Source: an uncultured delta proteobacterium (GTDB lineage Bacteria > Desulfobacterota > WTBG01 > CAIYCZ01 > CAIRTM01). Taken from it: a DNA stretch of 64,000 bases. The stretch is from positions 1-64,000 of the forward strand of contig CAWDSQ010000010.1 of the NCBI GenBank assembly GCA_963804955.1, in the 5' to 3' direction. Every line of letters starts with the position of its first letter. Within the stretch, counting starts at the first letter, position 1. The notes beneath the pieces were generated by a model. That model had not been told where the DNA came from. It saw only the letters and a program-made list of their open reading frames with translations, and made no database searches. A program made the position numbers and the translations under genes. Shown here piece after piece: positions 4,394 to 43,552 of the stretch.

Positions 4394-6058
4394 TCAGTCA
4401 GCTTTCACGAATATGGGGTTTGAATAGAACCATAGATCGGCATAGGCTTCTTCTAAACCGTCGATACCCAGGTTCTGAGTAGCAAGAGTGTCGAGCAGAG
4501 GGTTGCCTTCCGCGTCGGTTTCAAAGGGCGTACCCGCGGGCACGTTCGTGCCGCGAAGGCGGAAGTACATGTCTTTATCCACATTTTTTATAGTGTAGGT
4601 GATAGTCTTCCAGCCGTCGTGTTCCCGCCAGTCCTCTTCCGTAAAGGTGGCGATAACCTTTGTGGACTCATTGGTTGCCTTTGTATAATCAGGAGATGAG
4701 GGATCAATTTTTCCGGTCACATCGCCGGCAATAAGGTCAATATGGTCAACATTTACTGCATCGCCATTGTTATTGGTCTCAGGGCTCTTAAAACGTATAA
4801 CGATCTTGATGCCCGGCTTGTTCTTTGTCAGCACAAGCTCCTGCCCCATGGTAGCGGTGTTTTTCGGGCATTTACGGTCAACGATGGTGAAATCAAGCGC
4901 ATTAATCAGATCGCCGTTGACGACAAACGAGTTTCCTGAACGAAGGCCGTTGATATATGCCCGTGGCTTATTTGCATCTTTTACATATACATAGGTTTTC
5001 TGGTATTCGCCGGGCCAGAAATCGTCGCCGCCGTCGGTCCAGTGAAGATGGCAGTCGGAGCTTGCAAAGTTCCACCAGTGCCGTCCTTCGCCAAGCAGAG
5101 CATCCCACAGGCCTCCGACTTTAGCGGTGTAATACCCGGCGCCGCCGTAGGTGCCCGTACCGACCGCGCCTGAGCCGAATCCGCCGCGGTCACTGTTTAC
5201 CTGATGGCCGGGAAGCCCCTCGAAGCCGAAACATACATCGGGGCCGGCATTGTTCAGATCGCGGAAATGATTGATGTCATATCCGCCGGTTGCATATGTC
5301 CCCTTGCGTTCAACATGCGCAGGGACTGTATAGCTTGCACCCGGATGATTTGCCTGAAGCCATGCCACGGCTTCAACCGCTTTTGCATGTTTGGTGAGCG
5401 CTGATTTCACCCAGCCCTGCGCCGCACCGCCGCTGATGTCTGCATCGCTGTTGTCGAATTTGTACTCAAACTCGGCAAGGGCTTTCGTATTGGGATTGTA
5501 TTTATCAAACTGTCCTGTAATGAGTGCTACGCTGCAATGCTCATGACCGGGCATATTCCATTCAAAGCCCTGCAGAATCATTTTGTCAGGATAGTCAGCC
5601 CGGGCTTTCAAAACATCCTGCACAAGATAATCCCGCAGGCTCTGCCACCGCCACATAAGCTGATGGCCGCCGCTTGTTTTTACATCGCCGATGATGGGAT
5701 TTGGCACGTAGCTGTCCCAGTAGACATCCCCTCCATTATCAATGCCATGCCTGCCGTCTCGATTGAAACCGCCGCCATGCTCCGACTGCGTCCACCAGTC
5801 AAGGCCGAATTCCTTGTTTTTCTCCATCATGTAATCATAGGAGTAACTGCCGTCGGTGTAAGTCGTGTGCTGGTGGAAATCACCGGCAAGATAGTCGGAT
5901 ATTCGGTAGCACTTTGGGGTTGTTTCCTTGCCCGTGTTCTGGTGGAAATCAGAGCCAAAATGTTCCCCTGCCAGTGATGCCTGCGCGAGCGTAAGGCTCA
6001 AAGCCGGTACAAGCAAAAAGTTAAGCAGGCCGCTGCTTTTTTTTGTTCTTTTTTTCAT
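4394..6058 (-). CDS. Secreted PHP-family metallo-phosphoesterase
   Basis: Signal peptide, LAGDFHQHT..TDG, SEH, HEH, PAHVER and SSDCH metal-binding motifs, C-terminal YSNPIFV. Confidence 0.75.
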   Translation of the reverse strand: MKKRTKKSSGLLNFLLVPALSLTLAQASLAGEHFGSDFHQNTGKETTPKCYRISDYLAGDFHQHTTYTDGSYSYDYMMEKNKEFGLDWWTQSEHGGGFNRDGRHGIDNGGDVYWDSYVPNPIIGDVKTSGGHQLMWRWQSLRDYLVQDVLKARADYPDKMILQGFEWNMPGHEHCSVALITGQFDKYNPNTKALAEFEYKFDNSDADISGGAAQGWVKSALTKHAKAVEAVAWLQANHPGASYTVPAHVERKGTYATGGYDINHFRDLNNAGPDVCFGFEGLPGHQVNSDRGGFGSGAVGTGTYGGAGYYTAKVGGLWDALLGEGRHWWNFASSDCHLHWTDGGDDFWPGEYQKTYVYVKDANKPRAYINGLRSGNSFVVNGDLINALDFTIVDRKCPKNTATMGQELVLTKNKPGIKIVIRFKSPETNNNGDAVNVDHIDLIAGDVTGKIDPSSPDYTKATNESTKVIATFTEEDWREHDGWKTITYTIKNVDKDMYFRLRGTNVPAGTPFETDAEGNPLLDTLATQNLGIDGLEEAYADLWFYSNPIFVKAD

Positions 6059-6351
6059 TATAATCCCCTTTATTAAATTATTAATCACACTAAGAAGGTG
6101 TTTTATTCTGTACGCATCTTTTACTTTTAGCGGTGCCCCGTTGTGTTTATCCGTGTATTTCCGGCAACCGGAACACCCCTTGTACACGTAGCCAATCTCT
6201 GTTTGCTCCCACCACCTCCTTTCCTCTGATGGATCTGTTCCGTTGCCGGATGTCCTTCAGCATGACGAGGTTCCCGCTTTTATTAATAGGCGCCGATTTT
6301 TCGTCTCGGTCTGTTCTGCGTGCACCTGTGCGCAACAAGTGTTTACGGGTA

Positions 6352-6405
6352 AGTGTAGCCGGTAAGTTTTAAGGCGAAATAAGGATCAGGTTAAATACTA
6401 GTTAA
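6352..6405 (-). promoter_or_regulatory. Pho-box-like array plus -10 (TACACT) for the PHP phosphoesterase
   Basis: TTAA at 6402, 6391, degenerate 6380, 6369; -10 at +15. Confidence 0.75.
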
Positions 6406-6450
6406 CTGCGCGCATTGCTGCGCCAGCTGCGATAATGAAAAAGGGAGGGC

Positions 6451-6524
6451 AAAAAGGAAGGGGGCCTTGCGGCCCCCAGGGGAGGAAAAGTAACACTGAA
6501 GTGAGCAGCCTCAGCGTACTCTTT
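6451..6524 (-). ncRNA. Candidate Pho-regulated small RNA, sibling 1
   Basis: Own upstream promoter array. Predicted transcript AAAGAGUACGCUGAGG-loop-CUUCAGUGUUACUUUU hairpin, CCUCCCC linker, GGGGGCC-GCAA-GGCCCCC terminator and pyrimidine/U tail. No ORF. Confidence 0.55.
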
Positions 6525-6530
6525 AACAGC

Positions 6531-6584
6531 AGTATAGCTGAGGTTCTTTAAGGGCTGATAAAAATTGCTTTAAAATCAGGTTAA
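6531..6584 (-). promoter_or_regulatory. Pho-box-like array plus -10 (TATACT) driving candidate sRNA 1
   Basis: Minus strand reads TTAACCTGATT TTAAAGCAATT TTTATCAGCCC TTAAAGAACCT cagc TATACT. Confidence 0.75.
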
Positions 6585-7645: not shown

Positions 7646-8687
7646 GGCGTCCTCCTGTTTTGTTGTCCCCGTTGCCGGCAGCAATGGCCCGGCCGATCAG
7701 AGACCGGACCTGAACGTCCGTTTCAACCAGCTGCGCGCCGAAGCCCTGCGAATAACGGCTGTAGGCGCCCTGATGGCGCATATTAGCGATGATATCATCG
7801 CAGAAGAGAACCCTGTTTTTTTGAAACACAAGCACGTCGGTTGAGCTGCCGGGGCGGTAGAGGCTCTTGGGGCAGCCCTTTTCCAGGAACAGGCCCTGCA
7901 CGACGAACTGCGGGCTGTCGTAGCGCTTCCGGCTGTAGCACTGCACGATATCGCCGATCATGAGGGCCACGATTTCAATCATGGCAACAAGCCCTATGCC
8001 CGTGCCGCCAACCACGTCGGTGTCGATGATGGTTACCACGCGTTTATTTTTTGAATAGGGCGTTGCGACCGTGACGACGGCCGACGGATTTGCCGGATGA
8101 TAACAGCCGGGAATTTCATAGAGCTCAAGCACGCGGCCCGAGACCGGAACATGGTTATAGTGGTACTTGTCGGGCGTGAGGCGGAATACGGCGAAATCGC
8201 CGCCCCTGAACTCCTGCAGCCACAGGGAGCGGTCAAAGCCGATCAGCTCATCGAGGTTGAAGAATTTTTCCTTTAAAAAAATCTGGGATGTGTCGGCAAG
8301 CGACCCCACCAGTAACCTGCCGTCGGCAGGAGAGACGATACCGTCGGGATCGGCGGGCATGGGCCGGGTTTCCCAATAACGTATTTGACGCTCGAATATT
8401 TTTTTTGCCGTGTTCAGCCGCTCGCCCGGTTCGAGGCATTCCGAAAGATCTATGCCAAGCCGCTCCACGAACCGGTGCGCGCCAGCCAGGCGCGACAGGG
8501 TCGGCAGCTCGTAATTCACCATGCTCAGCAGGCCGGACATGCGCGACGAGGTCAGCGCCTTGAACAGGGCCGGCGACTGCTCACGGTCGCTGTTGTACAG
8601 ATAGGAAATAATGCGGTCACCGTAGAGCCGTTCGGTCATGACACGGCGGGTGCCCCTCTCAATATACTGATGCTGCGGTATTTTCAT
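7635..8687 (-). CDS. Phosphatidylserine decarboxylase-family protein
   Basis: VSPADG, FRLTPDKYHYNHVPVSG and PGSST self-cleavage motif. Confidence 0.85.
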   Translation of the reverse strand: MKIPQHQYIERGTRRVMTERLYGDRIISYLYNSDREQSPALFKALTSSRMSGLLSMVNYELPTLSRLAGAHRFVERLGIDLSECLEPGERLNTAKKIFERQIRYWETRPMPADPDGIVSPADGRLLVGSLADTSQIFLKEKFFNLDELIGFDRSLWLQEFRGGDFAVFRLTPDKYHYNHVPVSGRVLELYEIPGCYHPANPSAVVTVATPYSKNKRVVTIIDTDVVGGTGIGLVAMIEIVALMIGDIVQCYSRKRYDSPQFVVQGLFLEKGCPKSLYRPGSSTDVLVFQKNRVLFCDDIIANMRHQGAYSRYSQGFGAQLVETDVQVRSLIGRAIAAGNGDNKTGGRHDS

Positions 8688-12225: not shown

Positions 12226-12286
12226 ATACAGGCGCCTTTTTTTACGGTCAGGTTCTGCAGGGCCGTCTGGGCTTCCTGCTGCTGAT

Positions 12287-12357
12287 AAAAAAAGGGGGCC
12301 TTGCGGCCCCCTGGAGGAGGAGAGATGCTGAAAAAAGCGGTTTCAACACTTCTCTGT
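12287..12357 (-). ncRNA. Candidate Pho-regulated small RNA, sibling 2
   Basis: AGAGAAGUGUUGAAA-loop-UUUCAGCAUCUCU hairpin, CCUCCUCC linker, AGGGGGCC-GCAA-GGCCCCCU terminator followed by a U-run. Same architecture as 6451-6524. Confidence 0.55.
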
Positions 12358-12361
12358 TTTT

Positions 12362-12417
12362 AATATATACGGCTACTCGGTTAAAAAAAAATAATGGGTT
12401 GATTAATTTACGGTTAA
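12362..12417 (-). promoter_or_regulatory. Pho-box-like array plus -10 (TATATA/TATATT) driving candidate sRNA 2
   Basis: TTAA at 12414, 12403, degenerate ~12392, 12381. Confidence 0.75.
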
Positions 12418-13213: not shown

Positions 13214-13267
13214 TTAACCGAAAATTAACCCGCGCTTTATTTGCCGTTAACTCTCCACGGGTATTGT
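13214..13267 (+). promoter_or_regulatory. Pho-box-like array plus -10 (TATTGT) for the TonB/ExbBD operon
   Basis: TTAACCGAAAA TTAACCCGCGC TTTATTTGCCG TTAACTCTCCA cggg TATTGT. Confidence 0.8.
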
Positions 13268-13304
13268 TTAATCAAAAATGCACATCTCAGAGAGGAGCAC
13301 CTGC

Positions 13305-14054
13305 ATGAAAAAAAGACACCTATGGCTGCTGGCGTTAATGCTGGGTATGGCCCCGGCAACGCAGGCCGCGCAGCCCGGGCAGATCAAGCAGACCATCGAT
13401 CAGTCCATTAAAACCCGGGAAACGACCCAGAAAAAAGCCGCCGACTGGCAGGGCAATAAAGAGCGGATGAAGAACCGCTACTTTCAGTTGAAAGAAGCCC
13501 TTGAGATGACCGGGCTTGAGCTGACTCATATGCAGGAAGTGACGGCCAAACAGGATGCCTACCTGGTGCGTACACGGCGCAAGGTGCATGAAATGGAAAA
13601 AATGGGCCGCGAGCTGCAGCCGTATCTCAACCAGCAGGTTGCCCGCCTGTCCGATCACATTAAAAAAGATCTGCCGTTTCTGCCGGAGGAACGCAGCGCG
13701 CGGATTACAACCATGCACGGCATCTTGAACGACCCCGAGATACCCTTGAGCGAAAAGCTGCGCCGCACCTTCGAGGCAATGCGCGTGGAAATGGACTATG
13801 GCAAATCAATTGAAACGACCCGCACGGAGATCGACTACAAGGGGCAGAAGGTTTTGGTGAACATGCTGCGTCTGGGCCGTACAGCCCTGCTGATGCAGAC
13901 CATTGATGAAAAGGAATCAGGCCTGTATGCCGGAGGAACATGGGTGCAGCTGCCCGGGCAGTACGGCGCGGAGATAAAGAAAGCCATGGAAATAACCCAG
14001 CGCCGCAGGCCTGTCGACTTTGTAAACCTGCCCCTTCGGGAGATCAAACAATGA
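13305..14054 (+). CDS. DUF3450-family periplasmic coiled-coil protein
   Basis: Signal peptide, DLPFL.EER..R, SEK.RR..EA...E.DYG and LRLGR motifs; first gene of an Exb operon. Confidence 0.85.
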   Translation: MKKRHLWLLALMLGMAPATQAAQPGQIKQTIDQSIKTRETTQKKAADWQGNKERMKNRYFQLKEALEMTGLELTHMQEVTAKQDAYLVRTRRKVHEMEKMGRELQPYLNQQVARLSDHIKKDLPFLPEERSARITTMHGILNDPEIPLSEKLRRTFEAMRVEMDYGKSIETTRTEIDYKGQKVLVNMLRLGRTALLMQTIDEKESGLYAGGTWVQLPGQYGAEIKKAMEITQRRRPVDFVNLPLREIKQ

Positions 14055-15496
14055 AGCATATCGTATTTTGTGTAGCGCTGCTGCTGTGCACGATTATGTG
14101 CCGCGGCTGCGCCTGGGCCGAAGATAACCAGACCGCGTCGGCCGCCACATCACAGCAGATCACCAGCGCCATCGATGAAGCACAACGCAAAGCCGATGAA
14201 GACGCAAAAAAGGCGCGGGAAGAAGCAGCGCTGAAGGAAGCCGAGGTTATGGACCAGCAGGGCACGCTCCAGGCGACATTGGAGCGTCTTGAAGCTGAAA
14301 AAAAAGCTCTGGACGAAAAGCTCGATACGGCAAAAAAACTCTATGAGCAAAACGAGCAGGAAACCGCCCTGCTGCAGAAGCGCAGCGAGGAGCAAAAGGG
14401 CCAGGCCGACGAGATAGCAGGGTCCCTGCGCGGTATTGCCCAGGACCTGGGCACGTCCATCAGCCAGTCTCTGGTGTCCGGCGAAACGCCGGGCCGCAGA
14501 AAAATCCTCGAGCCCCTGGTGACGCAGAACGAATTTCCCTCCTTTGAAGCCATCGGCGGCATGGCCGATCTCATGTTCGAGGAAATGAGCCGCAACGGCA
14601 AAATTTCCACCACCGCCATGGCCTTCACCGATGACGCGGGCCGCGAGACCCGGGGCGACGTTGTGCGCATAGGCATGTTCAATGCCCTGTGGAAAAAAGA
14701 CGGCAAGGTGGGCTATCTGGAATATTCGCCGGCCAAGGAGACCTTTTCGCAGTTTTCCGTAAAAATGCCCGGCGCCTATCTCGGCGAAGCCAAACAGTTT
14801 ACGGCTGGTGCGTCGCAGGGGCTTTATCTTGATCCGTCATCGGGAGGCGCCTTCCGTTTCATTTCCGACATGCCCGACTGGTGGGAAGAGCTGAAATCAG
14901 GCGGCTCCCTCATGTGGCCTATCTGCCTGTGCGGAGTCATCGCCGTCATTCTGGCGATCGAGCGCTTTATCACGCTCATGCGTCACAGCAAAGCCACGGC
15001 GCAACTTGCCGATGCCGTCACGCCGGTGCTGCAGCGGGGCGACTGGGACGCGGCGCTGCGCATAAGCAAAGGCAGCAGCATCGGCCTTGCGCGCGTTCTT
15101 GCCGCCGGCATCAACCACCGGCAGGAGCAGACCGAGGTGCTTGAGTCGGTCATGGAAGAATCCATTCAGAGCATCCGGGGCCCCCTTGACCGCAATATGG
15201 CCAGCCTGCAGATTATCGCCGTGGTGTCGCCGCTGCTGGGGCTGCTGGGGACCGTCACCGGCATGATTTCAACCTTCAATATGCTCACGATCTACGGCTC
15301 AGGCGATCCCCGGCTCATGTCGGGCGGTATTTCCGAGGCCCTTGTCACCACCGAATACGGCCTGTTCATATCCATTCCCGTAATTCTCGTGCACGGCTAC
15401 TTTCAGGGCAAGGTGGGCGACATTATTGGCCGCATCGAGGAAAAAGCCATGACGCTGGTCAATTCCGTGAAAAAAATCAAAAGGCAGGCCGCATGA
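14051..15496 (+). CDS. Large ExbB/TolQ/MotA-family protein with N-terminal periplasmic coiled coil
   Basis: SPLLGLLGTVTGMI and GGISEALVTT.YGL motifs. Confidence 0.9.
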   Translation: MKHIVFCVALLLCTIMCRGCAWAEDNQTASAATSQQITSAIDEAQRKADEDAKKAREEAALKEAEVMDQQGTLQATLERLEAEKKALDEKLDTAKKLYEQNEQETALLQKRSEEQKGQADEIAGSLRGIAQDLGTSISQSLVSGETPGRRKILEPLVTQNEFPSFEAIGGMADLMFEEMSRNGKISTTAMAFTDDAGRETRGDVVRIGMFNALWKKDGKVGYLEYSPAKETFSQFSVKMPGAYLGEAKQFTAGASQGLYLDPSSGGAFRFISDMPDWWEELKSGGSLMWPICLCGVIAVILAIERFITLMRHSKATAQLADAVTPVLQRGDWDAALRISKGSSIGLARVLAAGINHRQEQTEVLESVMEESIQSIRGPLDRNMASLQIIAVVSPLLGLLGTVTGMISTFNMLTIYGSGDPRLMSGGISEALVTTEYGLFISIPVILVHGYFQGKVGDIIGRIEEKAMTLVNSVKKIKRQAA

Positions 15497-16086
15497 ACTG
15501 GGAAATATCCACCTGGGAGTATCTGGCGACAGGAGGGCCCGTGATGGTGCCCCTGCTGCTGGTCTCGCTTGCCATGGCGTTCATGATAGCCGAACGGTTT
15601 TTGTATTTTGCGGGGATCGAGCGCGGCGATATCAACGCCGATGCCGTCATCAGGGGCATTGAAAACAATGCCCCGGCTGCCGGCGGCGGGCTGTGCGCAA
15701 CGGTGCTTGATCGGCTGCTGGCGGCCCGGGCCGTTTATGGCGAGCTTGATCTGCGGGTGCTCCATGAAACCGTGCAGGGCTTTCTTCCCGAACTGCGGCG
15801 GGGGTTCAATATAATCGCCTGCCTGATAGCCGCGGCTCCGCTGCTGGGGCTGCTGGGGACCGTGACCGGCATGATCGAAACCTTTAATGTCATGAATATT
15901 TTCGGCACCACCAATCCCAAGGCCATGTCCGGGGGCATATCCGAGGCCATGATCACCACGCAGTACGGTTTGGTGCTCGCCATTCTCGGGATGTATGTGC
16001 AGATGTTTGTAGAAAAACGGGCGCGCCGCTGCGAGCACATGGTCGAGGAGCTGACGCGCCACATTATAAGGAAATTTCAGCTATGA
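15493..16086 (+). CDS. exbB: ExbB/TolQ/MotA proton channel protein
   Basis: APLLGLLGTVTGMI and GGISEAMITT motifs. Confidence 0.9.
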   Translation: MNWEISTWEYLATGGPVMVPLLLVSLAMAFMIAERFLYFAGIERGDINADAVIRGIENNAPAAGGGLCATVLDRLLAARAVYGELDLRVLHETVQGFLPELRRGFNIIACLIAAAPLLGLLGTVTGMIETFNVMNIFGTTNPKAMSGGISEAMITTQYGLVLAILGMYVQMFVEKRARRCEHMVEELTRHIIRKFQL

Positions 16087-16503
16087 TCCGCTCACGACGA
16101 AGGACCGAAGGGGACAAGCCCATTGAAATCAACATGGCGCCGCTGATCGACATGACCTTTCTGCTGCTGATTTTTTTCATCGTAACCACCAGCTTTGTGA
16201 AAGAAACAGGCCTTGAGGTGAACCGGCCCTCGGCCAAAAGCGCGGAGAGCAAGGAAAAAAGCACCATCATGGTGGGCGTAAGCAGGCAGGGGTTCATTTA
16301 CATGGAAAACCGCTCCATTGATTTGCGCTCCGTGCGGGCGAATGTCGAAAAGGCCATGGCCGATAACCCCGATGCGGGCGTCATCAGTCGTGGCGGACAA
16401 GGAAAGCTCCACGGGCCTTGTGGTGAATGTCATCGACCAGTGCAGGCTTGCCGGCGCCAAGGCGGTATCGATAGCAACCAAGAGGGAAGACGAGTCCACA
16501 TGA
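16083..16503 (+). CDS. exbD: ExbD/TolR biopolymer transport protein (frameshift ~16386)
   Basis: INMAPLIDMTFLLLIFFIVT; the C-terminus VVADKESSTGLVVNVIDQCRLAGAKAVSIAT is in an adjacent frame. Confidence 0.85.
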
Positions 16504-17150
16504 GCGTTCTGCAGCCTGTCCACCGGCGCTATTTTGCGGCACTGGCCATAGCCTGCGTTGCCACCGCCCTGTGCCTGTTCGTGCTGCCGGTATCGCTGCG
16601 CTTCAGCGCGCCGATGAAGAAAGATCTGCTGCGCGAGGCCCTGCAGCTTGCCGATTACCGCAAGCCGCCGCCGCCGCCGCCGAAAAAGCAGGAGCAGCAG
16701 AAAAAGCCCGAAGCGCAAAAGGTTCAGCCCAAGCTCAAAAGCTTCATGCCGAAAATGGACATGGACTCTTCGGCCCTTGCGGGCAAGTTTCAGTTCGACC
16801 TCGGCCTTGCCGGCGGCTCGGGCGCGGGTGTCGGGATGAATCTGGGGGCAAAGATATTCGACGAGTCAAAAGTCGACGCCAAGCCCGTGGCCCTGTTCCG
16901 GACGCAGCCGATCTATCCGGCAAAGGCGCAGGGCGAACAGCTGACGGGCCGCGTGAGTTTCCGGTTTCTGGTTGACCGCGACGGCATGGTCAAAGACGTT
17001 GAGATAGCAAGCGCTCAGCCGCCCGGTATTTTTGATGATGCCACCATAGCGGCTGTCAAGCAGTGGCGTTTTCAGCCGGCAAAAGTCAAGGGAGAGGCGG
17101 TCGCCTGCTGGTGCCAGTCGTCAATTAAGTATGAACTTGATGTCGAGTAA
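16500..17150 (+). CDS. tonB: TonB energy transducer
   Basis: TM anchor, Pro/Lys-rich linker, P.YP..A....G.V...F.VD.DG.V and WRFQPA C-terminal domain. Confidence 0.9.
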   Translation: MSVLQPVHRRYFAALAIACVATALCLFVLPVSLRFSAPMKKDLLREALQLADYRKPPPPPPKKQEQQKKPEAQKVQPKLKSFMPKMDMDSSALAGKFQFDLGLAGGSGAGVGMNLGAKIFDESKVDAKPVALFRTQPIYPAKAQGEQLTGRVSFRFLVDRDGMVKDVEIASAQPPGIFDDATIAAVKQWRFQPAKVKGEAVACWCQSSIKYELDVE

Positions 17151-17168
17151 AGGAATAGGAGGAGAGAT

Positions 17169-18388
17169 ATGAAAAAATTAGTGGCTCTGATGGTTCTGTG
17201 CGGTTTCATGGCAGCGGGCAGCGCGGCAGCCGACGACGGCGAGATCAAGTGGGACACCGTGCCCGATGAGACCAAAACAGCGCTCTATGAAGCGCAGCAG
17301 GATATGAACGGCGGCAAGATGGATAAAGCGCTGAGCGACCTTCTGAAATTTCAGCAGAAGCGTCCAAATACAACCATTTTCTGGTCGAGTTCAATATCGG
17401 CACGCTCTATGGCCTGCAGAAGCAGCCGGATAAGGCAATTGCGCATCTGGAAAAAGCCGTGGAGATGGAAAAATCCTACAGCCCCATCTGGATGAACCTC
17501 GGCAAGCTGTACTACCAGCTGCAGGCTTTCGACAAGGCAGGGGCCGCGCTGGAGCAGTCGTTCCGGTGCAGCGTTCAGCAGGAAACCGACATACTCTACA
17601 TGGCCATGGCGTCCTATTACCAGGCCGGCGATCTGCCAAAGGCCACGGCCCTGGGCGAGGAGCTGGTGCAGGTATTCCGCCGCGACAGCCCTGAAATCGT
17701 GAGCCTGCTTGCGGGCATTTATATACAGACCGGCAATTTCGGCAGCGCCGTTACCATGCTGGAAACGCTGCTTGAGAAAACCCCCTCCGATGACAAGCTT
17801 TGGAAAATGCTGGCCCAGGCGCATTTCAAGAACCAGAAATACCGCGAGGCGGCCATAGCCTATGAAACCTTCGGATATCTCAGGGAGCTGGGCCGCGATG
17901 AACTGATAGTCATGGGCGACCTGTACACCATGGTGGGCGTGCCCCTGCGGGCCGCGCAATACTATGAGCTGGCCCTGCAAAACGGCGGCACTGCCGATGA
18001 ACAGGAAAAGCTGTCGGTTGCCTACTACTGCGCCTATGAATTCGACAAGGCATCCGCTGCCGTCGATGGCGCCCTTAAGGAAAAGCCAACGGTGGAGCGG
18101 ATGCTGTTGAAGGCGCAGCTGTGCTACCTGCAGGAGCGTTTTGTGGAAGCCCAGCAGCATTATGTGAAAGCGGCGGAGGCCATGTCCAAGGACGGCCATG
18201 AATGGCTTATGGCGGGCTACTGCGCCCTGCGCGGCGGCAATACCAGCCGCGCCCGCGAGCTTTTAAGCAAGGCCGCCGAATTTCCGACGCAGCGCCAGGA
18301 TGCTCTTGCCATGCTCAAGGCGCTGCAGCCGGCCGATGATTTTAAAAAGGCGATGCAGGAATTAAAGGAAGCGCAGCAGCTGCTGTAG
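17169..18388 (+). CDS. Periplasmic tetratricopeptide-repeat protein (frameshift ~17370)
   Basis: Signal peptide and TPR helices (WMNLGKLYYQ, WKMLAQAHF); two ORF pieces. Confidence 0.8.
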
Positions 18389-18422
18389 GGTTCTCAAAAA
18401 CTGATATGCAGGGTGGACGAAC

Positions 18423-21301
18423 GTGACGCTGAAACAGAAGATGGAACCCCGGAGGCAGTGGCTGCACAGGCGCCTGGTGAGAGCCTGCACAGGCATGTGC
18501 CTGCTTGCCGTGCTGTGTTTGTTTGTCCGTGATGCCTCAGCCCAGGCGGCAGGCGGCATTCGCGGCACGGTGACCGATGCCGCGAAAAAACCCCTTGCCG
18601 AGGTTGGCGTGGAGATATCGGAAGTATCGGGTAAACCAGTGCAGGGCGGGTTCGTGCTCACCGGCCGCGACGGCGGCTTCGTGCTGCAGGTGCCCCCAGG
18701 AGCCTATGACCTTAAAGTAACCGCTCCTGGCCATGAGCCCAGAACATTCAAGGGATTGAACGTGAAAGCAGGTGGATTTACCGAGCAGCAGGTAACGCTT
18801 TCGGGCTCGACCGTGCAGATAGATGAAATGAAGGTTGTGGGAAAGCCCCGGCAGGCCAGCGATTTTACCCAGATGATGAAGCGGCAGGCAGCCGCGGGCA
18901 TTATGGACAATATTGCCGCCGATACCATTAAGAAAATTCCCGAGTCCGATGTGGCGGGCATTCTCACGCGCATGCCCGGCGTGGTTATATCCGAGGGTAA
19001 ATACATGCAGGCCCGGGGCATGACCAAGCGCTATAACAATACCATCCTCAACGGCGCCGTGGTGCCGACGACGCGGCCCAATGAAAAGCTCACGCCCCTT
19101 GATCTTTTTCCGGGCGGCGTTGTCGATTCCATCAGCGTTGCCAAGACCTTTACGCCCGACCTGCCGGGAAATTTTTCCGGGGGCCTGTGCCAGATAAAAA
19201 CCAAGGCCCTGCCCGACGGCCCGCAGGTGAAGCTGGGCTATACGGCCAAATACAATACCGAGACAACGGGCGAGGATTATCTGACCTACAATGGCGGCGG
19301 CAAAGACTGGGCCGGCTATGACGACGGCACGCGCAAGCTCCCCCATATCATTCCCGGAATAAAAATAGGGAACACTGACAAGGACACGGCCGGCTCCGTG
19401 GGCGTCAGCGCACGAGAGCGCGAAAAATTAGGCGAATCGTTCGACAATACCTGGAACACGCACAGGCGCAATGCGCATCTGCAGTCCGACTATGAGTTTA
19501 CCGCCGGCGACCGCATGGGCAAGTTCGGCCTGGTCATGTCAACCTATTATAAAAGCGACATCAAGAACTATATTGATGAAGAAAGAACCTATTACGCGTA
19601 TGCCCCGGCTTCCCCCGGCGGCCAAGATCCTGCCCTCAGCTATGATTTTGAGCGATCGCGACTAATCATCAAGGAAGGCGGCCTGCTCAACTTCGGCTAT
19701 GAATTCAGCGCCGACCATAAAATGTATTTCACTAATTTTTACAACCGCAACACCACTGACGAGGCCCGCATCGCCCTGTCGACGTACCACACCGACGACG
19801 CAAGCTATTACAAGACGACGAAACTGCGCTATATCGAGGAGGAATTCTACTCGGGCGGCGTGGCGGGCGACCATAGGTTTGACGAGCTTTTAAAAAGCCG
19901 TGTCAAGTGGCGCTATAATTTTTCCCTGGCCCGGATGAATGATCCCGACCAGCGGTCGAATACGTATGAATTTGTTAGAGATATTAATGGAAATCCTACG
20001 GGGGAGTACATTCTGTCATCAAAAAAGGCCGAGGCTCTGCTGCGGCAGTTCTCCGAACAGGATGAGGACATGGATGATCTGGCTGTTGACTGGTCTTTGG
20101 AAGCGCCGAGCCCCTGGTCATGGCTGGAGCCCAAATTTCAGTTCGGCGCCGCCTACACAAAGCGCGACCGCGATTTCTATATGCGCCGGTTCGCCTTCGG
20201 TACTAGTAAGTCTCGACAGGTACAAATTTGATTTGACGCAGGACCCCGAAACCCTGCTGCAGCCCCAGAACATCAACCAGCAGGGATTTTATCTGCAGGA
20301 AACAACTCTCCCCAATGATACCTATACAGCCGGGGAAAGGCTGGCGGCAGGCTATGCCATGCTCGACTTCACCTTTTTTGAGCAGGTCCAGCTGCTGGGC
20401 GGCGTGCGCCTCGAGCGCGACAAGACCAGTCTCGACTCCATAAGTCTGTTTGATCCTAATAAAAGACATCAACACCACGCTCATTGACAATACCTGGGAG
20501 CCTTCGGTGAACCTGAAGTACAGCCCCTGTTAAAGACATGAATTTCCGGCTGGGGTTCAGCCGCACGGTCTCGCGGCCCGAGTTCCACGAGCTTGCGCCC
20601 TTTCTATTCTACCGATGTCGTCGGCGGCTACGGCATGAAGGGCAACCCGGACCTGCAGGTCGCGAAAATCAAGAATTACGACTTTCGCTGGGAATGGTTT
20701 ATCAACCGGCAGGACATTCTTGCCGTGAGCCTGTTCTATAAAGACATCACCAATGCCATAGAGCCCAGTAATTCTAGAACGAAGAATGGGGTCCATAACT
20801 ACACCAATGCCGATGACGCCTGGCTCAAGGGCGTGGAGTTTGAGGTGCGCAAAAACCTGGGCTTTGCCTGGTCGGGAGTGCGGCACTGGACCATTACCGG
20901 CAATTATGTCTATGCCGAATCGGAATCAACCATTCGGCGAACATACCTCGAATTTCATCCCCTTAACAGACAAGCGGCCCCTTGTGGGGCAGCCGGAAAA
21001 CATGGTGAACCTGGCCCTTGAGTACGATAACCCCGACTGGGGCTTCACTGCCCGCTTCATGTATCAGTACACTGACGAGCGCGTGGATCAAATCGCCGGC
21101 AATGATCTGCCCAATATTATTGAAAAAGAGCATGACCGGTTTGACCTGGTGCTTATCAAAACCTTCGGCAAGCACTGGGACGTGAAATTTACCGCGCAGA
21201 ATCTCAATAATGAGCCTTACACCGTGACGCAGGGCGGCCAGATTTATCATACCTACAAGGTAGGCCGGACCTTCAAGCTGGGAGTTTCCTGGAAATGGTA
21301 G
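18423..21301 (+). CDS. TonB-dependent outer-membrane receptor (several frameshifts)
   Basis: CarboxypepD-like N-domain, plug (RMPGV..RG...RYN...LNG), SRTVSRPEF.ELAPF, GNPDL, C-terminal ..GVSWKW. Split over about five ORF pieces. Confidence 0.9.
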
Positions 21302-21327
21302 CAAAAACAAAACACTGTGTAGGGCTA

Positions 21328-21513
21328 TGGGTATCTCCCAAGCTGAAGCTCTATGAGGCAGCCGGGAGAAATCCCGGGCTGAAGTAAAAACAAGGGCGTT
21401 AAGAGTTCTCATCCCGCTTCCAGCGGGATTCGAAATGACAGCAAGGGCAATTACGACGCAGTCTCAAAAGCAGGTATCCAGAAATCAGTATTACTGCAGC
21501 TTTGTGGATGACC
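21328..21513. mobile_element. MITE-like element, family A
   Basis: Ends TGGGTATCTCCCAAGCTG and CAGCTTTGTGGATGACC; shares an internal segment with 12821-13063. Confidence 0.55.
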
Positions 21514-21539
21514 GGATAATTTTAATAGAATACAAAAAA

Positions 21540-21582
21540 TTAATTCAATGTTAACGCAAAATTAAAATGCAAATGGTACTGT
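21540..21582 (+). promoter_or_regulatory. Pho-box-like array (3 clear repeats) plus -10 (TACTGT)
   Basis: TTAA at 21540, 21551, 21562; -10 at 21577. Confidence 0.65.
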
Positions 21583-21640
21583 TTATCAGAATAGAGGGCT
21601 ATGCTGCTTGACTGGACTTACCCCTTTACATTGTTTTTTA

Positions 21641-21807
21641 TGGGTATCCACAAAGCTGAACCTGCCGGCAGGTTCAGCATGTATACACCAAATGGATTCC
21701 CGCCTGCGCGGGCATGACAAGATTTTTTAGTCTGTTGCGTTGCAAACTAACATCCCCCCGAAAGCGGGGCTACAGACACTGATGCGGTTCAGCTTTGTGG
21801 ATAACCA
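21641..21807. mobile_element. MITE-like element, family A
   Basis: TGGGTATCCACAAAGCTGAACC ... GGTTCAGCTTTGTGGATAACCA near-perfect 22-bp TIR. Confidence 0.7.
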
Positions 21808-21907
21808 GATTGTAGAGAAAGGAGGTGCCGGAGCAAACCAAAAACATGAGAAAAAAAAGCTATCGGGCCTATTCAAACAACAACGGACACAAAAAGGGAG
21901 ATATATC

Positions 21908-23499
21908 ATGAAAAAAATATTGAGCGCTATAGCGCTGGCCGCCATGCTGATAACGGCGGCAAACAGTCATGCCCAGACGGTCGTGCAGGGACAGATTACC
22001 AGCAACACCACCTGGAGCAGCGATGTGCTGATCAGAGGTCCTCTGTTCGTGCGCAGCGGCGCCACCCTGACGGTTACGGCAGGCACCACGGTTTACGGCG
22101 AAAAGGCTACTCTTGCAGCTCTTATTATCGACCGGGGCGCAAAATTGAATGCCGTCGGCACGATGGACAACCCGGTTCTCTTCACCAGCGACCAGCCTGC
22201 GGGTACGCAGGAACGCGCCGACTGGGGCGGACTCATCATCAACGGCTACTCAACCCTGAACGTACCCGGCGGCACGAAATCGGGCGAAGGCGACACCGGC
22301 ATTTTCGGCTGCACGCCTGGCGTTAACTGCAATGAGGCCGACAACAGCGGCACCCTGCAGTATGTGCGCGTGGAGTACGGCGGAATACAGTTCACCCCCG
22401 ATAACGAGCTCAACGGCATCGCCTTCCAGGGCGTGGGCTCCGGCACCACCGTTGACCATGTGCAGGTGCATATGAGCAAGGATGACTGCCTCGAGTTTTT
22501 CGGCGGTACGGTCAGCGTGAAATACGCGATCATGAGCGCCTGCGGCGACGACTCTCTTGACTGGACCGACGGCTGGCGCGGCAATGGCCAGTTTCTGGTG
22601 GTGCAGCAGAAGGGCGACGAGGCTGACGCCGGCATCGAGGCCGATAACTATGAGTTTGGACACGACAACCTGCCCCGCTCCAACCCCACGCTGTACAATT
22701 TGACCGTTGTGGGCGATCCGTGCCATCGGATCAACGAGCACCCGGGGCATGCGCCCCCGCCGCGGCACCGCGGGCAAGATTCGCAATGCCATCGTCATGG
22801 GCTTTGCCACGAATTCAGGCTGCGATATCGATGATGCCGCGACCTTCACTCAGGCAACAGCCGGCAACCTGGTCATCGACAATAATATTTTCTATAATAA
22901 CCTCGAGAAGCTTTGCCACCGACAGCGAAGCCTTTCTGGGCACGACCATGCAGAACAATGAGACAGTAAATCCCCTGCTGGGCGCACCCTACAACCTGAC
23001 AGCTCCGGATTTCCGCCCGGCTGCAGGTTCACCGGCCATTACCGGCGCCGTGCCGGTTGCCGCTCCTCCGGCGGGCAACAGCTATATCATCGCCACCGAT
23101 TATATCGGCGCGGTTGATCCCGACAGTGACTGGACACGGGCTGCCTGGACCAGCTATGGCACGGCTGCCTGGTCCCCTGATGATGCAGACGATGACGGCA
23201 TTTCGAATAGCGTTGACAACTGCCCGACTTCCTACAATCCCCAGCAGCGTGATGCCGACACTGACGGCGTAGGCGACGTGTGCGATACCACCCCGGGCTG
23301 CGGCGGCTGCGGCGAGGCTGCCTGTGAGGATGTTGATGCAGACAACGACGGTATTATTAATAATGTTGATAACTGCCCGAGCACGTGCAATGCTCAGCAG
23401 CGTGATGCTGATCTGGACGGAATAGGCGACGTGTGCGATACCACGCCCGGCTGCGGCGGCTGCGGCCAGGCTGCCTGCGAGACGGTCTGTACGCTGTAA
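21908..23499 (+). CDS. Secreted parallel beta-helix protein with C-terminal TSP3-like Ca-binding repeats (frameshifted)
   Basis: Signal peptide, WGGLIING, DNSGTLQYVRVEYGG, NELNGIAFQGVGSGT, DD..EFFGG; C-terminal DNCP..NPQQRDAD.DG.GDVCD x2. Confidence 0.8.
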
Positions 23500-23521
23500 T
23501 AAACAACGTACATAACAAATA

Positions 23522-23556
23522 AGGATTGAGCTGACCTGCAAGGTCAGCTCAATCCT
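23522..23556. other. Strong intergenic stem-loop (mRNA stabiliser or terminator)
   Basis: AGGATTGAGCTGACC-tgcaa-GGTCAGCTCAATCCT, without a U-run. Confidence 0.6.
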
Positions 23557-23582
23557 AAATTTATCGAAGGAGGAAAAGTATC

Positions 23583-25465
23583 ATGAAAAAAATATTGAGC
23601 GCCATAGCGATGGCCGCCATGCTGATAACGGCGGCAAACAGCCATGCCCAGACGGTCGTGCAGGGACGAGATTACCAGCAACACCACCTGGAGCAGCGAT
23701 GTGCTGATCAGAGGACCTCTGTTCGTGCGCAGCGGCGCCACCCTGACGGTTACGGCAGGCACCACGGTTTACGGCGAAAAGGCTACTCTTGCAGCTCTTA
23801 TTATCGACCGCGGCGCAAAACTGAATGCCATCGGCACCAAGGACAGCCCGGTTCTCTTCACCAGCGATCAACCTGCGGGTACGCAGCAACGCGCCGACTG
23901 GGGCGGAATCATCATCAACGGCTACTCAACCCTGAACGTACCCGGCGGCACGAAAACGGGCGAAGGCGACACCGGCGTCTTCGGCTGCACGGCCGGCGTT
24001 GACTGCAATGAGGCCGACAACAGCGGCACGCTCCAGTTTGTGCGCGTGGAGTACGGCGGCATTCAGTTCACCCCCGATAACGAGCTCAACGGCATCGCCT
24101 TTCAGGCCGTGGGCTCCGGCACCACCGTTGACCATGTGCAGGTGCATATGAGCAAGGATGACTGTATCGAATTTTTCGGCGGCACGGTCAGCATGAAAAA
24201 CGCCATTATGAGCGCCTGCGGCGACGATTCTCTTGACTGGACAGACGGCTGGCGCGGCAATGGCCAGTTTCTGGTGGTGCAGCAGAAGGGCGACGAGGCT
24301 GACCGCGGCATCGAGGCCGATAACTATGAGTTTGGACACGACAACCTGCCCCGCTCCAACCCCACGCTGTACAATTTGACCATTGTGGGCGATCCGGCCA
24401 CCGGATCAACGAGCAACCGGGGCATGACCATCCGCCGCGGCACCGCGGGTAACATCCGCAATTCCATCATCATGGGCTTTGCCACGAATGCAGGCTGCGA
24501 TATCGATGATGACGCGACCTTCACTCAGGCAACAGCCGGCAACCTGGTCATCGACAATAATATTTTCTACAACAATCTCAGGAGCTTTGCCACCGATTCC
24601 GAGGCATTCCTGGGCACGACCATGCAGCACAATGAGACCCGCAACCCGCTGCTGGGCCTGCCCTATGACCAGTCGGCCCCGGATTTCCGCCCGGATGCAG
24701 ATTCACCCGCCCTGGACAACGACACGGTTCCGGTTGCCGCTCCTCCGGCGGGCAACAGCTATATCATCTCCACCGATTATATCGGCGCTGTTGATCCCGA
24801 TAATGACTGGACACGGGCTGCCTGGACAACCTATGGCGAGGCTGCCTGGACTCCTGACGACTGCACCGATGCCGACGAAGACGGCTACTCTATAGAAGGC
24901 GGCGACTGCGGCGCGGTTGACTGCAATGACGGTAATGCCGCCATCAACCCCGGCGCAAACGAAACCTGTGAAGACGGTGTGGACAATGACTGCGACGGCC
25001 AGGTTGATGAAGGTTGCGACAACTGTACCGACGCCGACAATGACACCTATGCCGTTGAAGGCGGCGACTGCGGCCAGGTTGACTGCAATGACGGTAATGC
25101 CGCCATCAACCCAGGCGCAAACGAAACCTGTGAAGACGGTGTGGACAATGACTGCGACGGCCAGGTTGATGAAGGGTGCGACAACGCGACAGAGTGCGTC
25201 CTGACCGTGCGGCCGGCTACGGTATACAAATTCCTGAGCTGGGTTTTCCCGCTCAGGTTATATTCGCTGCAGGGCGACGGCAATGCGGTACTCACCTCTG
25301 ACGACGAACTCGACTGGGGAACTCCGGGGATCACAACATTGAGCGCCCGGGTTACCGGCGCAGCGCGCTATCAGGGGCATTATTTTTGTGCGGCCACGGC
25401 TTATTGAAGCAGGAACATATGATGTGACGGTAGGCAACTGCGCCGGCACGATCGAAATAAAATAA
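23583..25465 (+). CDS. Paralogous secreted beta-helix protein with two C-terminal MopE-like putative metal-binding repeats (frameshifted)
   Basis: N-terminal ~1.25 kb is nearly identical to the 21908 gene. The tail has DCNDGNAAINPGANETCEDGVDNDCDGQVDEG twice (162-bp period). Confidence 0.8.
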
Positions 25466-26726: not shown

Positions 26727-27420
26727 ATGATAAGCAGGCAGAAAAATATTGCACTGGTAGAAGATGACCCCGATATCGCCGAACTGATCATCCTGCATCT
26801 AAAAAAGAGCAGCTATGATGTTACTGCTTTCCCGGACGGCGCAAGCTTCCTGCATTTCCTGGAAACAGAGGTTCCCGCGCTTGTGCTGCTTGATCTGATG
26901 CTGCCGGATATCGATGGGCTTGAAATCTGCAAGATCATGCGCGATCGCGAAATGCTTGCCGCCGTGCCTATCTTAATCGTCACGGCTAAAAGCCTGGAGA
27001 TGGACAAGGTTCTCGGGCTTGAACTGGGAGCTGATGATTATCTGACCAAGCCGTTTTCTCCCAAGGAGCTTGTTGCGACGGGTCAGGGCGCTCTTGCGCC
27101 GGCAGGCGCCGGTGGATCAGCAGGCGCAGCGTATCGAGGTGGGCGGTGTTTTGACCCTTGATCTTGTCAGGCATGAGCTTACCGTTCGCGACCGGCGCGT
27201 CGAACTTACCTTCACGGAGTTTAAAATTCTTGAACTGCTTGCAGCAAAAAAAGGATGGGTGTTCAGCAGGGAGAAGATTTTAAACCATCTCTGGGGGGAG
27301 GGGAAAGCAGTCATTGACCGTACGATTGACGTTCATATACGGCACTTGCGCACAAAGCTGGGATCGGATGCGCAGTTCATCAAAAACATCCGGGGCGTCG
27401 GGTACAAGGTGGAAGAATAG
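26727..27420 (+). CDS. OmpR/PhoB-family response regulator (frameshift ~27078)
   Basis: VEDD, LLDLMLP, TAK, GADDYLTKPFSP receiver; LTFTEF, RTIDVHIRHLR, IRGVGY winged helix. Confidence 0.9.
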
Positions 27421-31623: not shown

Positions 31624-32676
31624 CTACTGCACTATCGCAGCTCCGTCATAGGTGGCTGACTTTAAAATCGCCTCAGCCTTTTTAACTGCTTCAGCCGGCA
31701 GCGGCGCATAGTCAAGGCCCTCTGCAAGCTGCTGGCCCTCATGCAGAATCCATCCCAGGAGATTTACAAGATCCGCGGCCTTTTCTTTTGAGCGTCCGGC
31801 ATAGTTCTGTTCTTTGTAAAACACCAGCCAGGTAAAGCCTGAAATCGGGTAGCCGTCTTTGGCTGCAGTGTTGACGATGCTCACGCGCGTGTCATCGGGA
31901 ATGGCCACGCCTGCGGCGGCGGTGACCGATTTCATGGAAGGCTTAATGAAAACGCCCGACTTGTTTTTGACATCGGCATAGGGCATTTTGTTCTGCACCG
32001 CATAAATAAGCTCAACATAGCCGATAGCGCCGGGCACCTGCTTCACAAGGCCTGCCACACCGGGATTGCCTTTGGCGCCAAGGCCGTTCGGCCAGTTGAG
32101 CGACTTGCCCGCGCCCACGCGCTCTTTCCATTCGGCGCTGACCGTGCTCAGATAATCGCTGAAAATAGCCGTGGTGCCGCTGCCGTCTGAGCGATGCACG
32201 GTGGCGATATTCATGTCGGGCAGCAGCATGCCCGGATTGACATGTCAACGATGCGCTTGTCATTCCATTTTTCAATTCTGCCGAGGAATATATCAACGAT
32301 CAGGTTCGAGGTCAGTTTGATTGCCGGATCGCCGGGTACATTATAGGTAATGACCACGGCGCCAAGGCAGGTGGGAATATGCAGAATGGGGGCCCCGGCT
32401 TCCGCCATTTCCTTGTCTTTCATGCAATCGTCAGTGCCGCCGAAATCAACGGTCTTGGCCTTCAGCTGCTGAATGCCGCCGCCCGAGCCGATGGCCTGAT
32501 AATTGACCTTAACGCCTTTTTCCTGGTTGTAGGTGTCAAACAGCTTGGAGTAGATACGGGAACGGGAAGGTCGCGCCTGCTCCCAAAAGCTCTTTGGCCT
32601 CGGCCCGCGCACCAGGCAGCAAAGCTGCGGCCAGGGCGAACAAAAGCGTGATCACGGTGAGCGCTGCTTTTTTCAT
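31624..32676 (-). CDS. pstS: Phosphate-binding protein PstS (system 1, frameshifted)
   Basis: VNYQAIGSGGG, HRSDGSGTT, GAIGYVE and YPISGFTW across ORF pieces. Confidence 0.95.
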
Positions 32677-34507: not shown

Positions 34508-34572
34508 TTCCTTCTCCTTTTTAAGATTGAATATTAAATGCGCACTGCTCAGATGCGCACTGCTATGTGATC

Positions 34573-34626
34573 ATTTTATCCGCCGAGTGTTAATATCGGT
34601 TAATTTTTCTGTTAAGATTCGGTTAA
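34573..34626 (-). promoter_or_regulatory. Pho-box-like array plus -10 (TAAAAT) for the porin-pstSCAB-phoU operon
   Basis: TTAA at 34623, 34612, 34600, 34590 (33-bp span); -10 at +15. Confidence 0.85.
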
Positions 34627-43478: not shown

Positions 43479-43552
43479 TCGGGGATCGTCCAACGGCAGG
43501 ACTCGGGAATTTGGATCCCGCTACGAAGGTTCGAATCCTTCTCCCCGAGCCA
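43479..43552 (+). tRNA. tRNA-Gln(UUG)
   Basis: Cloverleaf TCGGGGA/TCCCCGA acceptor, GTCC/GGAC D-arm, CGGGA-ATTTGGA-TCCCG anticodon arm, GGTTCGAATCC T-loop, encoded CCA. Confidence 0.95.

Follow-up and report, generated by a model that had tools for sequence, protein, structure and literature searches.

Two paralogous candidate small RNAs with anti-Shine-Dalgarno-like seeds in a putative Pho island of an uncultured Thermodesulfobacteriota bacterium

INTRODUCTION

Among described small RNAs (sRNAs), those closest to the elements considered here are the multicopy LhrC sRNAs of Listeria monocytogenes (PMC4132741), the Rsa sRNAs and RsaE (RoxS) of Staphylococcus and Bacillus, which have a conserved UCCC motif and are reported to be Hfq independent (PMC2790875), and PhoS of Bacillus, an sRNA that is stimulated by PhoP and induced at phosphate scarcity (PMC11522486). 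The last of these reports also describes the known regulators of bacterial phosphorus metabolism as proteins, almost without exception (PMC11522486). Here, we analyze a stretch of 64,000 nucleotides (nt) from an uncultured delta proteobacterium (GenBank assembly GCA_963804955.1, contig CAWDSQ010000010.1, positions 1 to 64,000 of the forward strand; below, the window). It holds two paralogous minus-strand units that look like independently promoted and terminated sRNAs, candidates for action in trans, and each unit has a perfect 12-nt complement on the ribosome-binding site (RBS) of a gene in the same island. To our knowledge, next to nothing has been reported on regulatory RNAs in uncultured sulfate-reducer-type bacteria, and in any bacterium only a small number of sRNAs have been linked to the control of phosphate metabolism.

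RESULTS

Two 12-nt words at start sites recur in minus-strand units of the same island

The word GGAGGAAAAGTA lies at 23569 to 23580 on the plus strand and is followed by TC and then by the ATG at 23583 of a secreted repeat protein (RBS and ATG, 23569 to 23585 (+)). This gene carries a MopE-type metal-binding motif; it had been labeled the second beta-helix gene in the preliminary description, and we keep "beta-helix" as a label. The word AGGAGGAGAGAT lies at 17157 to 17168 (+), directly next to the ATG at 17169 of a TPR gene (RBS and ATG, 17157 to 17171 (+)). One further copy of each word is present in the window, at 6481 to 6492 and at 12315 to 12326, respectively. As these second copies are also on the plus strand, the complements UACUUUUCCUCC and AUCUCUCCUCCU belong to minus-strand transcripts. 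The placement of the 12-mers before the two ATGs in the preliminary description was thus exact, with the complements in minus-strand units. Across the 4.26-Mb assembly of this genome (here, G000), GGAGGAAAAGTA occurs three times and AGGAGGAGAGAT twice.

The two units, of about 72 nt each, share a common anatomy: a 5' hairpin, an unpaired CU-rich linker, and a terminator stem, GGGGGCCGCAAGGCCCCC, followed by a U-rich tail. The first, sRNA1, spans 6451 to 6524 (-) (about 74 nt) and has the linker UUUUCCUCCCCU, a terminator stem at 6477 to 6460, and a U-rich tail; UACUUUUCCUCC lies within it at 6492 to 6481. The second, sRNA2, spans 12287 to 12357 (-) (about 71 nt) and has the linker CCUCCUCC, a terminator stem at 12312 to 12293, and U7; AUCUCUCCUCCU lies within it at 12326 to 12315. 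Start points were deduced from the -10 boxes. Folding of the minus strand gave -31.6 kcal/mol for sRNA1 (6450 to 6522; z of -4.0 versus shuffles) and -28.1 kcal/mol for sRNA2 (12286 to 12353; z of -4.9), compared with plus-strand z values of -1.3 and -3.8 at the same loci. G.U pairs and the U tail also favor the minus strand for both units. The terminators of sRNA1 and sRNA2 are the top two stems of a terminator scan, and the exact stem is found at these two places only in the genome.

The linker is unpaired in the single folds as well as in the consensus fold. For sRNA1, the linker contains 7 nt of the 12-mer (UUCCUCC), and the other 5 nt belong to the base of the 5' hairpin; for sRNA2, 6 nt are unpaired and 6 nt lie at the stem base. 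These splits agree with the toehold geometry proposed in the preliminary description, in which the seed begins in the linker and extends into the 3' strand of the 5' hairpin. That description had also attributed about half of each match to generic Shine-Dalgarno (SD) sequence, and the seed letters CCUCCU and CUCCUCC are indeed those of the anti-SD 3' end of the genome's own 16S rRNA, GGATCACCTCCTTTCT. The seed of sRNA2 runs on into CAU, the complement of AUG.

A small sRNA family within one genus

Homologues of the units are present in four of the five species of the genus, namely G000 and three of the four other species of this Thermodesulfobacteriota genus that we compared (G001, G002, and G004, of G001 to G004), for a total of nine copies, three of them in G004. 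The third G004 paralogue, at G004:C93:20736-20814 (locus L013), is of a type that we call sRNA2b (copy G004b), as is the sole sRNA2 of G002. A BLAST-level search of 36 genomes of other genera returned none, apart from one weak match at chance level. A covariance model built from the nine copies, with E-values that are rough, scored sRNA1 at 82.1 bits and sRNA2 at 85.2 bits; over 17 family genomes it found only the nine known copies and seven weak matches of 21 to 30 bits. The weak match that was inspected, G003:C22:227214, proved to be an ordinary terminator after a gene. Pattern scans of genome contigs (28 loci) and metagenome contigs (43 loci) yielded no new family member; they recovered the known contigs of G001, G002, and G004 along with five metagenome contigs whose seed regions are identical to that of G004.

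Both helices are kept in all nine copies, with 96.5% of cells paired versus 45 to 62% when partners are slid. Three base pairs have changes on both sides, and the observed covariation score was reached by 12 of 500 shuffles, so that covariation lends the helices modest support. The C/U-rich linker, the repeat-design promoter with its -10 box (see below), and the GC stem with its U tract were found in silico in nine of nine copies; CCTCC is present in eight, and sRNA1 of G004 reads CTCCTTCTCC.

In Rfam searches, the whole window gave no sRNA family at the gathering threshold, its sole match being a tRNA gene at 43479 to 43549 (+) (56.4 bits). The sRNA1 locus had no match at E values of up to 1, and the sRNA2 locus had three matches at chance level (12 to 18 bits against thresholds of 41 to 70). 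The suhB/mmgR family of alphaproteobacteria (RF00519) comprises a small RNA with a C/U-rich, anti-SD-like motif, and it was the sole sRNA family to score on the body of sRNA2 (E of 0.45); at 16.2 bits, far below the gathering score of 41, membership of sRNA2 in RF00519 was rejected. Given the conserved helices and the lack of a match in Rfam, we conclude from these comparisons that the two units probably belong to a small, new sRNA family.

The sRNA promoters share a repeat design with the pst operon

Each unit is preceded by four TTAACC-like hexamers at 11-bp spacing, then 9 nt and a -10 box. The sRNA1 promoter (6531 to 6584 (-)) reads TTAACC, TTAAAG, TTTATC, and TTAAAG, with TATACT as the -10 box (6536 to 6531); that of sRNA2 (12364 to 12417 (-)) reads TTAACC, TTAATC, ATTATT, and TTAACC, with TATATA (12369 to 12364). 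The design is kept for both sRNAs in G001, G002, and G004. There are 47 matches to it genome-wide, and the five best are all inside the window, those of sRNA2 and sRNA1 being third and fourth. The best match, with a score of 20, stands before a TonB cluster that ends in the TPR gene (13214 to 13272 (+)). The fifth best (6339 to 6405 (-)) lies just past the sRNA1 terminator, before a gene for a 597-amino-acid (aa) protein (4394 to 6187). The remaining one of the five (34560 to 34626 (-)) stands before the genes for a small secreted protein and a porin and before pstS-C-A-B-phoU; another phoU-pst operon is divergent from this promoter at 34626. Together, the five promoters outline a compact regulon consisting of the TonB cluster, the porin-pst operon, the two sRNAs, and the 597-aa protein.

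A candidate reader of the TTAACC repeats is encoded at 26739 to 27411 (+), in two frames, as a PhoB/OmpR-type response regulator. It has a Response_reg domain and matches TIGR02154 over positions 2 to 115 (114.9 bits) and 107 to 225 (95.7 bits). The PhoB/OmpR regulator family usually binds direct repeats spaced at 11 bp, and the TTAACC repeats are probably the Pho box of this lineage. A Pho context for the sRNAs is plausible because their promoters match the design found at the pst operon and the TonB cluster and because the PhoB-like regulator is encoded in the same island.

The matches are at chance level genome-wide and unusual in their location

For ranking and null estimates we used a crudely called set of 4,858 genes; GGAGG precedes the start in 518 of them. 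Any two of these GGAGG start regions share some 12-mer with a probability of 0.0012. With some 10 GGAGG-type sites in the window, about 0.012 in-window matches are expected per sRNA, and about 0.6 matching strong sites are expected per sRNA in the whole genome (518 x 0.0012). Neighboring start sites share words approximately 3 times more often than random pairs do (19 pairs observed versus, by our own estimate, about 6.6 expected). The nominal probability that both sRNAs match within the window is roughly 1e-4 to 1e-3, before allowing for the free choices of the reader who noticed the matches.

Perfect complements of at least 12 nt to the CU-rich seed of sRNA1 number six in the genome, and only the one at 23569 has an ATG 2 nt downstream that opens an open reading frame (ORF) of at least 50 codons; a further site, C13:110337, has an ATG 11 nt downstream and a 67-codon ORF. 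Two such complements, 17157 and C32:135875, exist for the CU-rich part of sRNA2. The number of matches is thus at chance level genome-wide, and the unusual part is their location, for both sRNAs, in the same island. Upstream of the 12-mers, the target genes and the sRNA loci show no continued similarity.

The preliminary description had named a genome-wide ranking as a way to check these targets. A structure-aware cofold ranking of 4,859 start sites (ddG, the dimer energy minus the two self-folds) placed the TPR gene first for sRNA2, at -22.8 against -20.8 for the runner-up, and the beta-helix gene fourth for sRNA1, at -16.7. Three of the top six sites of sRNA1 are in the island (beta-helix, 13940, and the TPR site). 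The predicted duplexes reach past the 12-mers and over the start codons; for sRNA2 and TPR, 12 bp are followed by a small internal loop and then by pairing of UGAAAAAA with UUUUUUCA.

The TPR start site and one seed substitution

The TPR gene is the last of a DUF3450-MotA/ExbB-ExbB-ExbD/TonB-TPR cluster. Orthologues of the cluster were found in six other genera of the family and in one of the order, with TPR identity of 55 to 61% in the six family genera. The long purine run before the TPR start in G000 is absent from seven of seven orthologous start regions in these other genera. The seed of sRNA2 is also particular to G000: where G001, G002, and G004a have CATATC, it has CATCTC, and with this single substitution perfect pairing to the TPR site grows from 9 to 12 nt and ddG shifts from -14.5 to -22.8; G001 has CAUAUCUCC in the place of CAUCUCUCC in G000.

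A TPR orthologue was not found in the assemblies of G001 to G004. Since the G001 contig ends within the first genes of the cluster, at the equivalent of window position 14356 and with 84% identity, G001 probably has the same TonB-type cluster, of which the TPR gene lies outside the assembled part. A word of G001 that looked compensatory, GGAGGAGAAGTA, has one other site, on the opposite strand inside a histidine-kinase gene; that site is not an RBS, and the word was rejected. In the place of window positions 13278 to 18388, G004 (G004:C93:12597-13552) and G002 (G002:C413:7600-8576) hold a distant ExbD-TonB pair of 24 to 33% identity. Metagenome contigs of relatives that are 93 to 97% alike cover the TPR site (X1 record 6 and X2 record 13; four runs); among the 40 differences listed, of about 2,984, none lies in the four 12-mers, which is uninformative.

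Many genes of this assembly are broken by single-base frameshifts: TPR (17459 to 17495), the TonB-dependent receptor (18423 to 21301, in three pieces), pstS (31624 to 32612), the regulator (26739 to 27411), and the gene at 23583 (23583 to 24002). TPR is split into 17169 to 17495 and 17459 to 18388, and the frame of the beta-helix gene breaks between 23583 to 24002 and 23644 to 25407. Metagenome contigs of relatives, aligned to the window, show one-base gaps at 16386, 20528, 22721, and 23667. Assembly error is likely.

Observations around the beta-helix gene and the sRNA1 stem

A perfect 14-bp hairpin, GGATTGAGCTGACC TGCA GGTCAGCTCAATCC, lies between the repeat-protein genes at 23530 to 23562 (+), 6 nt before the 12-mer at 23569, and might serve as a terminator or as the place where processing defines the 5' end of the target mRNA. 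Farther upstream, 21666 to 22256, which lies in the gene preceding a thrombospondin-type-3 repeat region, has a summed contig depth of 83 to 286 in four metagenome runs, compared with about 1 to 30 elsewhere; this segment is either repeated or common to many organisms. The 5' stem of sRNA1 (GUAUGCUGA...) complements codons 5 to 10 of a PS-decarboxylase-like gene (G004:C93:6440(-), G002:C413:14780(+), and window position 8687(-)), with ddG values of -15.0 in G004, -16.3 in G002, and -7.1 in G000, where one stem base differs. This pairing is within chance for the best of about 60 to 90 sites.

Comparisons across the genus argue against conserved targeting

The results in this section weigh against the view that the two genes are targets. 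Covariation of seed and RBS in related genomes, which the preliminary description had put forward as a check, was not observed. The beta-helix orthologues of G004 (AAAAGGAGGTTTATCATG) and G002 (AAAAGGAGAGACATCATG) have ordinary RBSs; with the sRNA1 of their own species they reach ddG values of -3.9 in G004 and -6.6 in G002, about the median of strong sites, and the pairing is kept in neither of the two orthologous pairs. The G000 beta-helix site ranks high for G000 (3rd) and G001 (22nd) only; for the others it is placed 121st to 247th. On the island contigs of G002 and G004 (18,073 and 30,358 nt), no seed complement of at least 10 nt precedes the start of an ORF of at least 50 codons. The best in-island ddG values are -17.3, -14.1, -11.6, and -13.6 in G004, where the -17.3 site (an in-frame GTG with a weak SD) was judged intragenic, and -14.9 and -14.5 in G002; the 14-mer for the G004b seed has no other site in G004 at up to one mismatch. 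The sRNA2 of G002 matches an unrelated secreted-protein gene of another contig over 13 nt, the AUG among them; in G000, the orthologue of this gene has AGGAGGCTCTATG and no such match. Long matches come and go between species.

Specificity is also in question. The TPR site gives -16.2 with sRNA1, nearly equal to the value for sRNA1's own proposed target. It ranks between 1 and 12 among the 520 strong sites for all seven orthologous sRNAs, among them sRNA1 types and the sRNAs of G002 and G004, the species in which the TPR gene was not found and with whose sRNAs the site scores equally well or better. G004b, whose seed is CAUAUCUCUCCUCCU, pairs with the G000 TPR site at -29.5 and, by our own comparison, with a 15-nt perfect run that includes the AUG. 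As the site binds every family member well, the TPR match owes much to a generic purine run. A plain RNAduplex ranking of 10,897 loosely defined sites, which disregards self-structure and admits many GC-rich and intragenic sites, put sRNA2-TPR at rank 18 and sRNA1-beta-helix at rank 144. Because of their frameshifts, both target genes had been dropped by the crude gene caller, and the TPR and beta-helix start sites were added by hand to give the 4,859. Hfq (PF17209) was not found in the genome, which is 87% complete. Finally, all target assignments are predictions. Among the sequencing runs searched, no RNA run with this locus was listed, and transcription of the two units is inferred from sequence, as are Pho control and repression of both genes.

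DISCUSSION

Our best explanation, to which we give roughly even credence, is that the units are phosphate-induced, trans-acting sRNAs that mimic the anti-SD sequence and, with the unpaired linker as their point of entry, occlude strong start sites. A PhoB-type regulator would read the four TTAACC-like repeats and drive transcription of both sRNAs, which would end at their strong intrinsic terminators. The induced sRNAs would then pair with strong, purine-rich translation start regions, beginning in the linker and invading the base of the 5' hairpin, and so block ribosome loading. For sRNA2, the best predicted site belongs to the TPR gene, the last of the Pho-box TonB cluster, and for sRNA1 it belongs to the secreted repeat protein at 23583. 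The resulting loop would have one regulator switch on an operon together with an RNA that dampens one of its genes. Taking the genes separately, the chances that TPR is a real target of sRNA2 appear evenly balanced, and it is doubtful that the beta-helix gene is one of sRNA1. The tuning within Pho operons suggested in the preliminary description thus finds agreement in the promoters, which share the pst design, and in the high ranks, with no seed-target covariation to go with them. A bolder version would hold that this genus-restricted phosphate-starvation family mimics both the anti-SD end and the anticodon side of AUG and serves as a fast-evolving brake on start sites of the Pho island, one seed substitution and a purine-rich TPR start having made a new pair, with sRNA2 acting also as the attenuating leader of a lipid-remodeling operon; we consider this rather unlikely.

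The main rival view is that the sRNAs are real and both 12-nt matches coincidental, with any true targets elsewhere or forming a broad class of strong SD sites. The seed is an ideal complement of a start region (SD, short spacer, and AUG), so a few of some 500 strong starts would match it anyway, and the one or two matches seen per sRNA fit the genome-wide expectation. The loss of the matches in orthologues, the unrelated 13-nt match of G002, and the rank of the TPR site as a top binder for every family member all fit coincidence. It accounts poorly, however, for ranks 1 and 4, for the location of both best sites in the Pho-box island of the sRNAs, no more than 17 kb away from them, at an expectation of about 0.012 each, for a G000-specific seed change that improves the TPR match, and for TPR orthologues that lack the purine run in genera where the sRNA was not found. 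On balance we regard coincidence as possible but improbable. Less likely still is action in cis alone, in which sRNA2 is the terminated 5' leader (attenuator) of the hydrolase operon that follows it (12225 to 6592 (-): hydrolase, 808-aa, PS-decarboxylase-like, LGT-like, and 127-aa genes), sRNA1 is the terminator region at the operon's end, and the CU-rich tract has a part in pausing, in protein binding, or in an alternative fold. On the same strand, 60 nt lie between the end of the sRNA2 terminator and the hydrolase ATG (12225), a layout shared with G001 and G004, and sRNA1 starts 8 nt past the stop codon of the operon's last gene. Between 12286 and 12225, neither a sigma-70-like site nor a TTAACC promoter was found, so the operon probably needs read-through and sRNA2 would at least also be a leader. 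Such a role is nevertheless compatible with trans action of the terminated product; sRNA1 has a full promoter of its own and is followed by a separate promoter for the next gene, and no antiterminator fold appeared in minimum-energy or centroid structures.

It is highly improbable that the plus strand carries the signal, with the purine-rich words as RBSs of tiny ORFs or as relics of duplicated gene starts. All five sRNA2 loci (12315 to 12363 (+), L010, L011, L012, and L013) do carry GGAGGAGGAG, with a perfect SD, then 2 to 4 nt, an ATG, and a 10- to 22-codon ORF starting MLK, and the plus strand of the sRNA2 locus folds with the z of -3.8 given above. These ORFs, however, vary in sequence and length (10, 12, 12, 19, and 22 aa); an ATG is missing from the sRNA1 loci, three of the four having GTG starts alone and that of G002 having none; and, with the hairpin directly before the SD, there is no space for a promoter. 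The U tail, promoter design, and G.U pairs fit the minus strand, and the similarity to the target genes stops at the 12-mers instead of continuing upstream. The antisense MLK mini-ORFs are probably a by-product of a seed that complements an ideal start site.

If the two RNAs are expressed and occlude start sites as predicted, the Pho island, in which phosphate uptake is coupled with a TonB energy system and probable membrane-lipid genes, would gain a further level of control by RNA, and the two RNAs would be a clean case of an anti-SD mimic seed quickly gaining targets. If the matches are chance, seeds that complement ideal start sites would give long perfect matches in every genome, and top ranks in target searches would need orthologue controls.

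The family appears to share the working principle of C/U-rich, SD-pairing sRNAs with no relationship in sequence. The unpaired C/U-rich UCCC motifs of LhrC reportedly pair with the SD regions of its targets. LhrC resembles the present units in its sister copies, in induction by a two-component system (predicted here), and in C/U-rich unpaired motifs for SD regions. It differs in phylum, in having no sequence or Rfam relation to them, and in signal, which is envelope stress there and of a phosphate type here; the predicted seed here is also longer (CUCCUCC, plus CAU in sRNA2). The Rsa sRNAs and RsaE likewise aim unpaired C-rich motifs at RBSs, independently of Hfq there and in a genome where Hfq was not found here, whereas their motifs lie mostly in hairpin loops and ours in the linker between the 5' hairpin and the terminator, and the regulators and taxa differ. 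PhoS shares control by a Pho two-component regulator (predicted here). It derives from the 3' untranslated region of phoPR, whereas the units of this genus are paralogous, have Pho-box-type promoters of their own, and carry an anti-SD-like seed.

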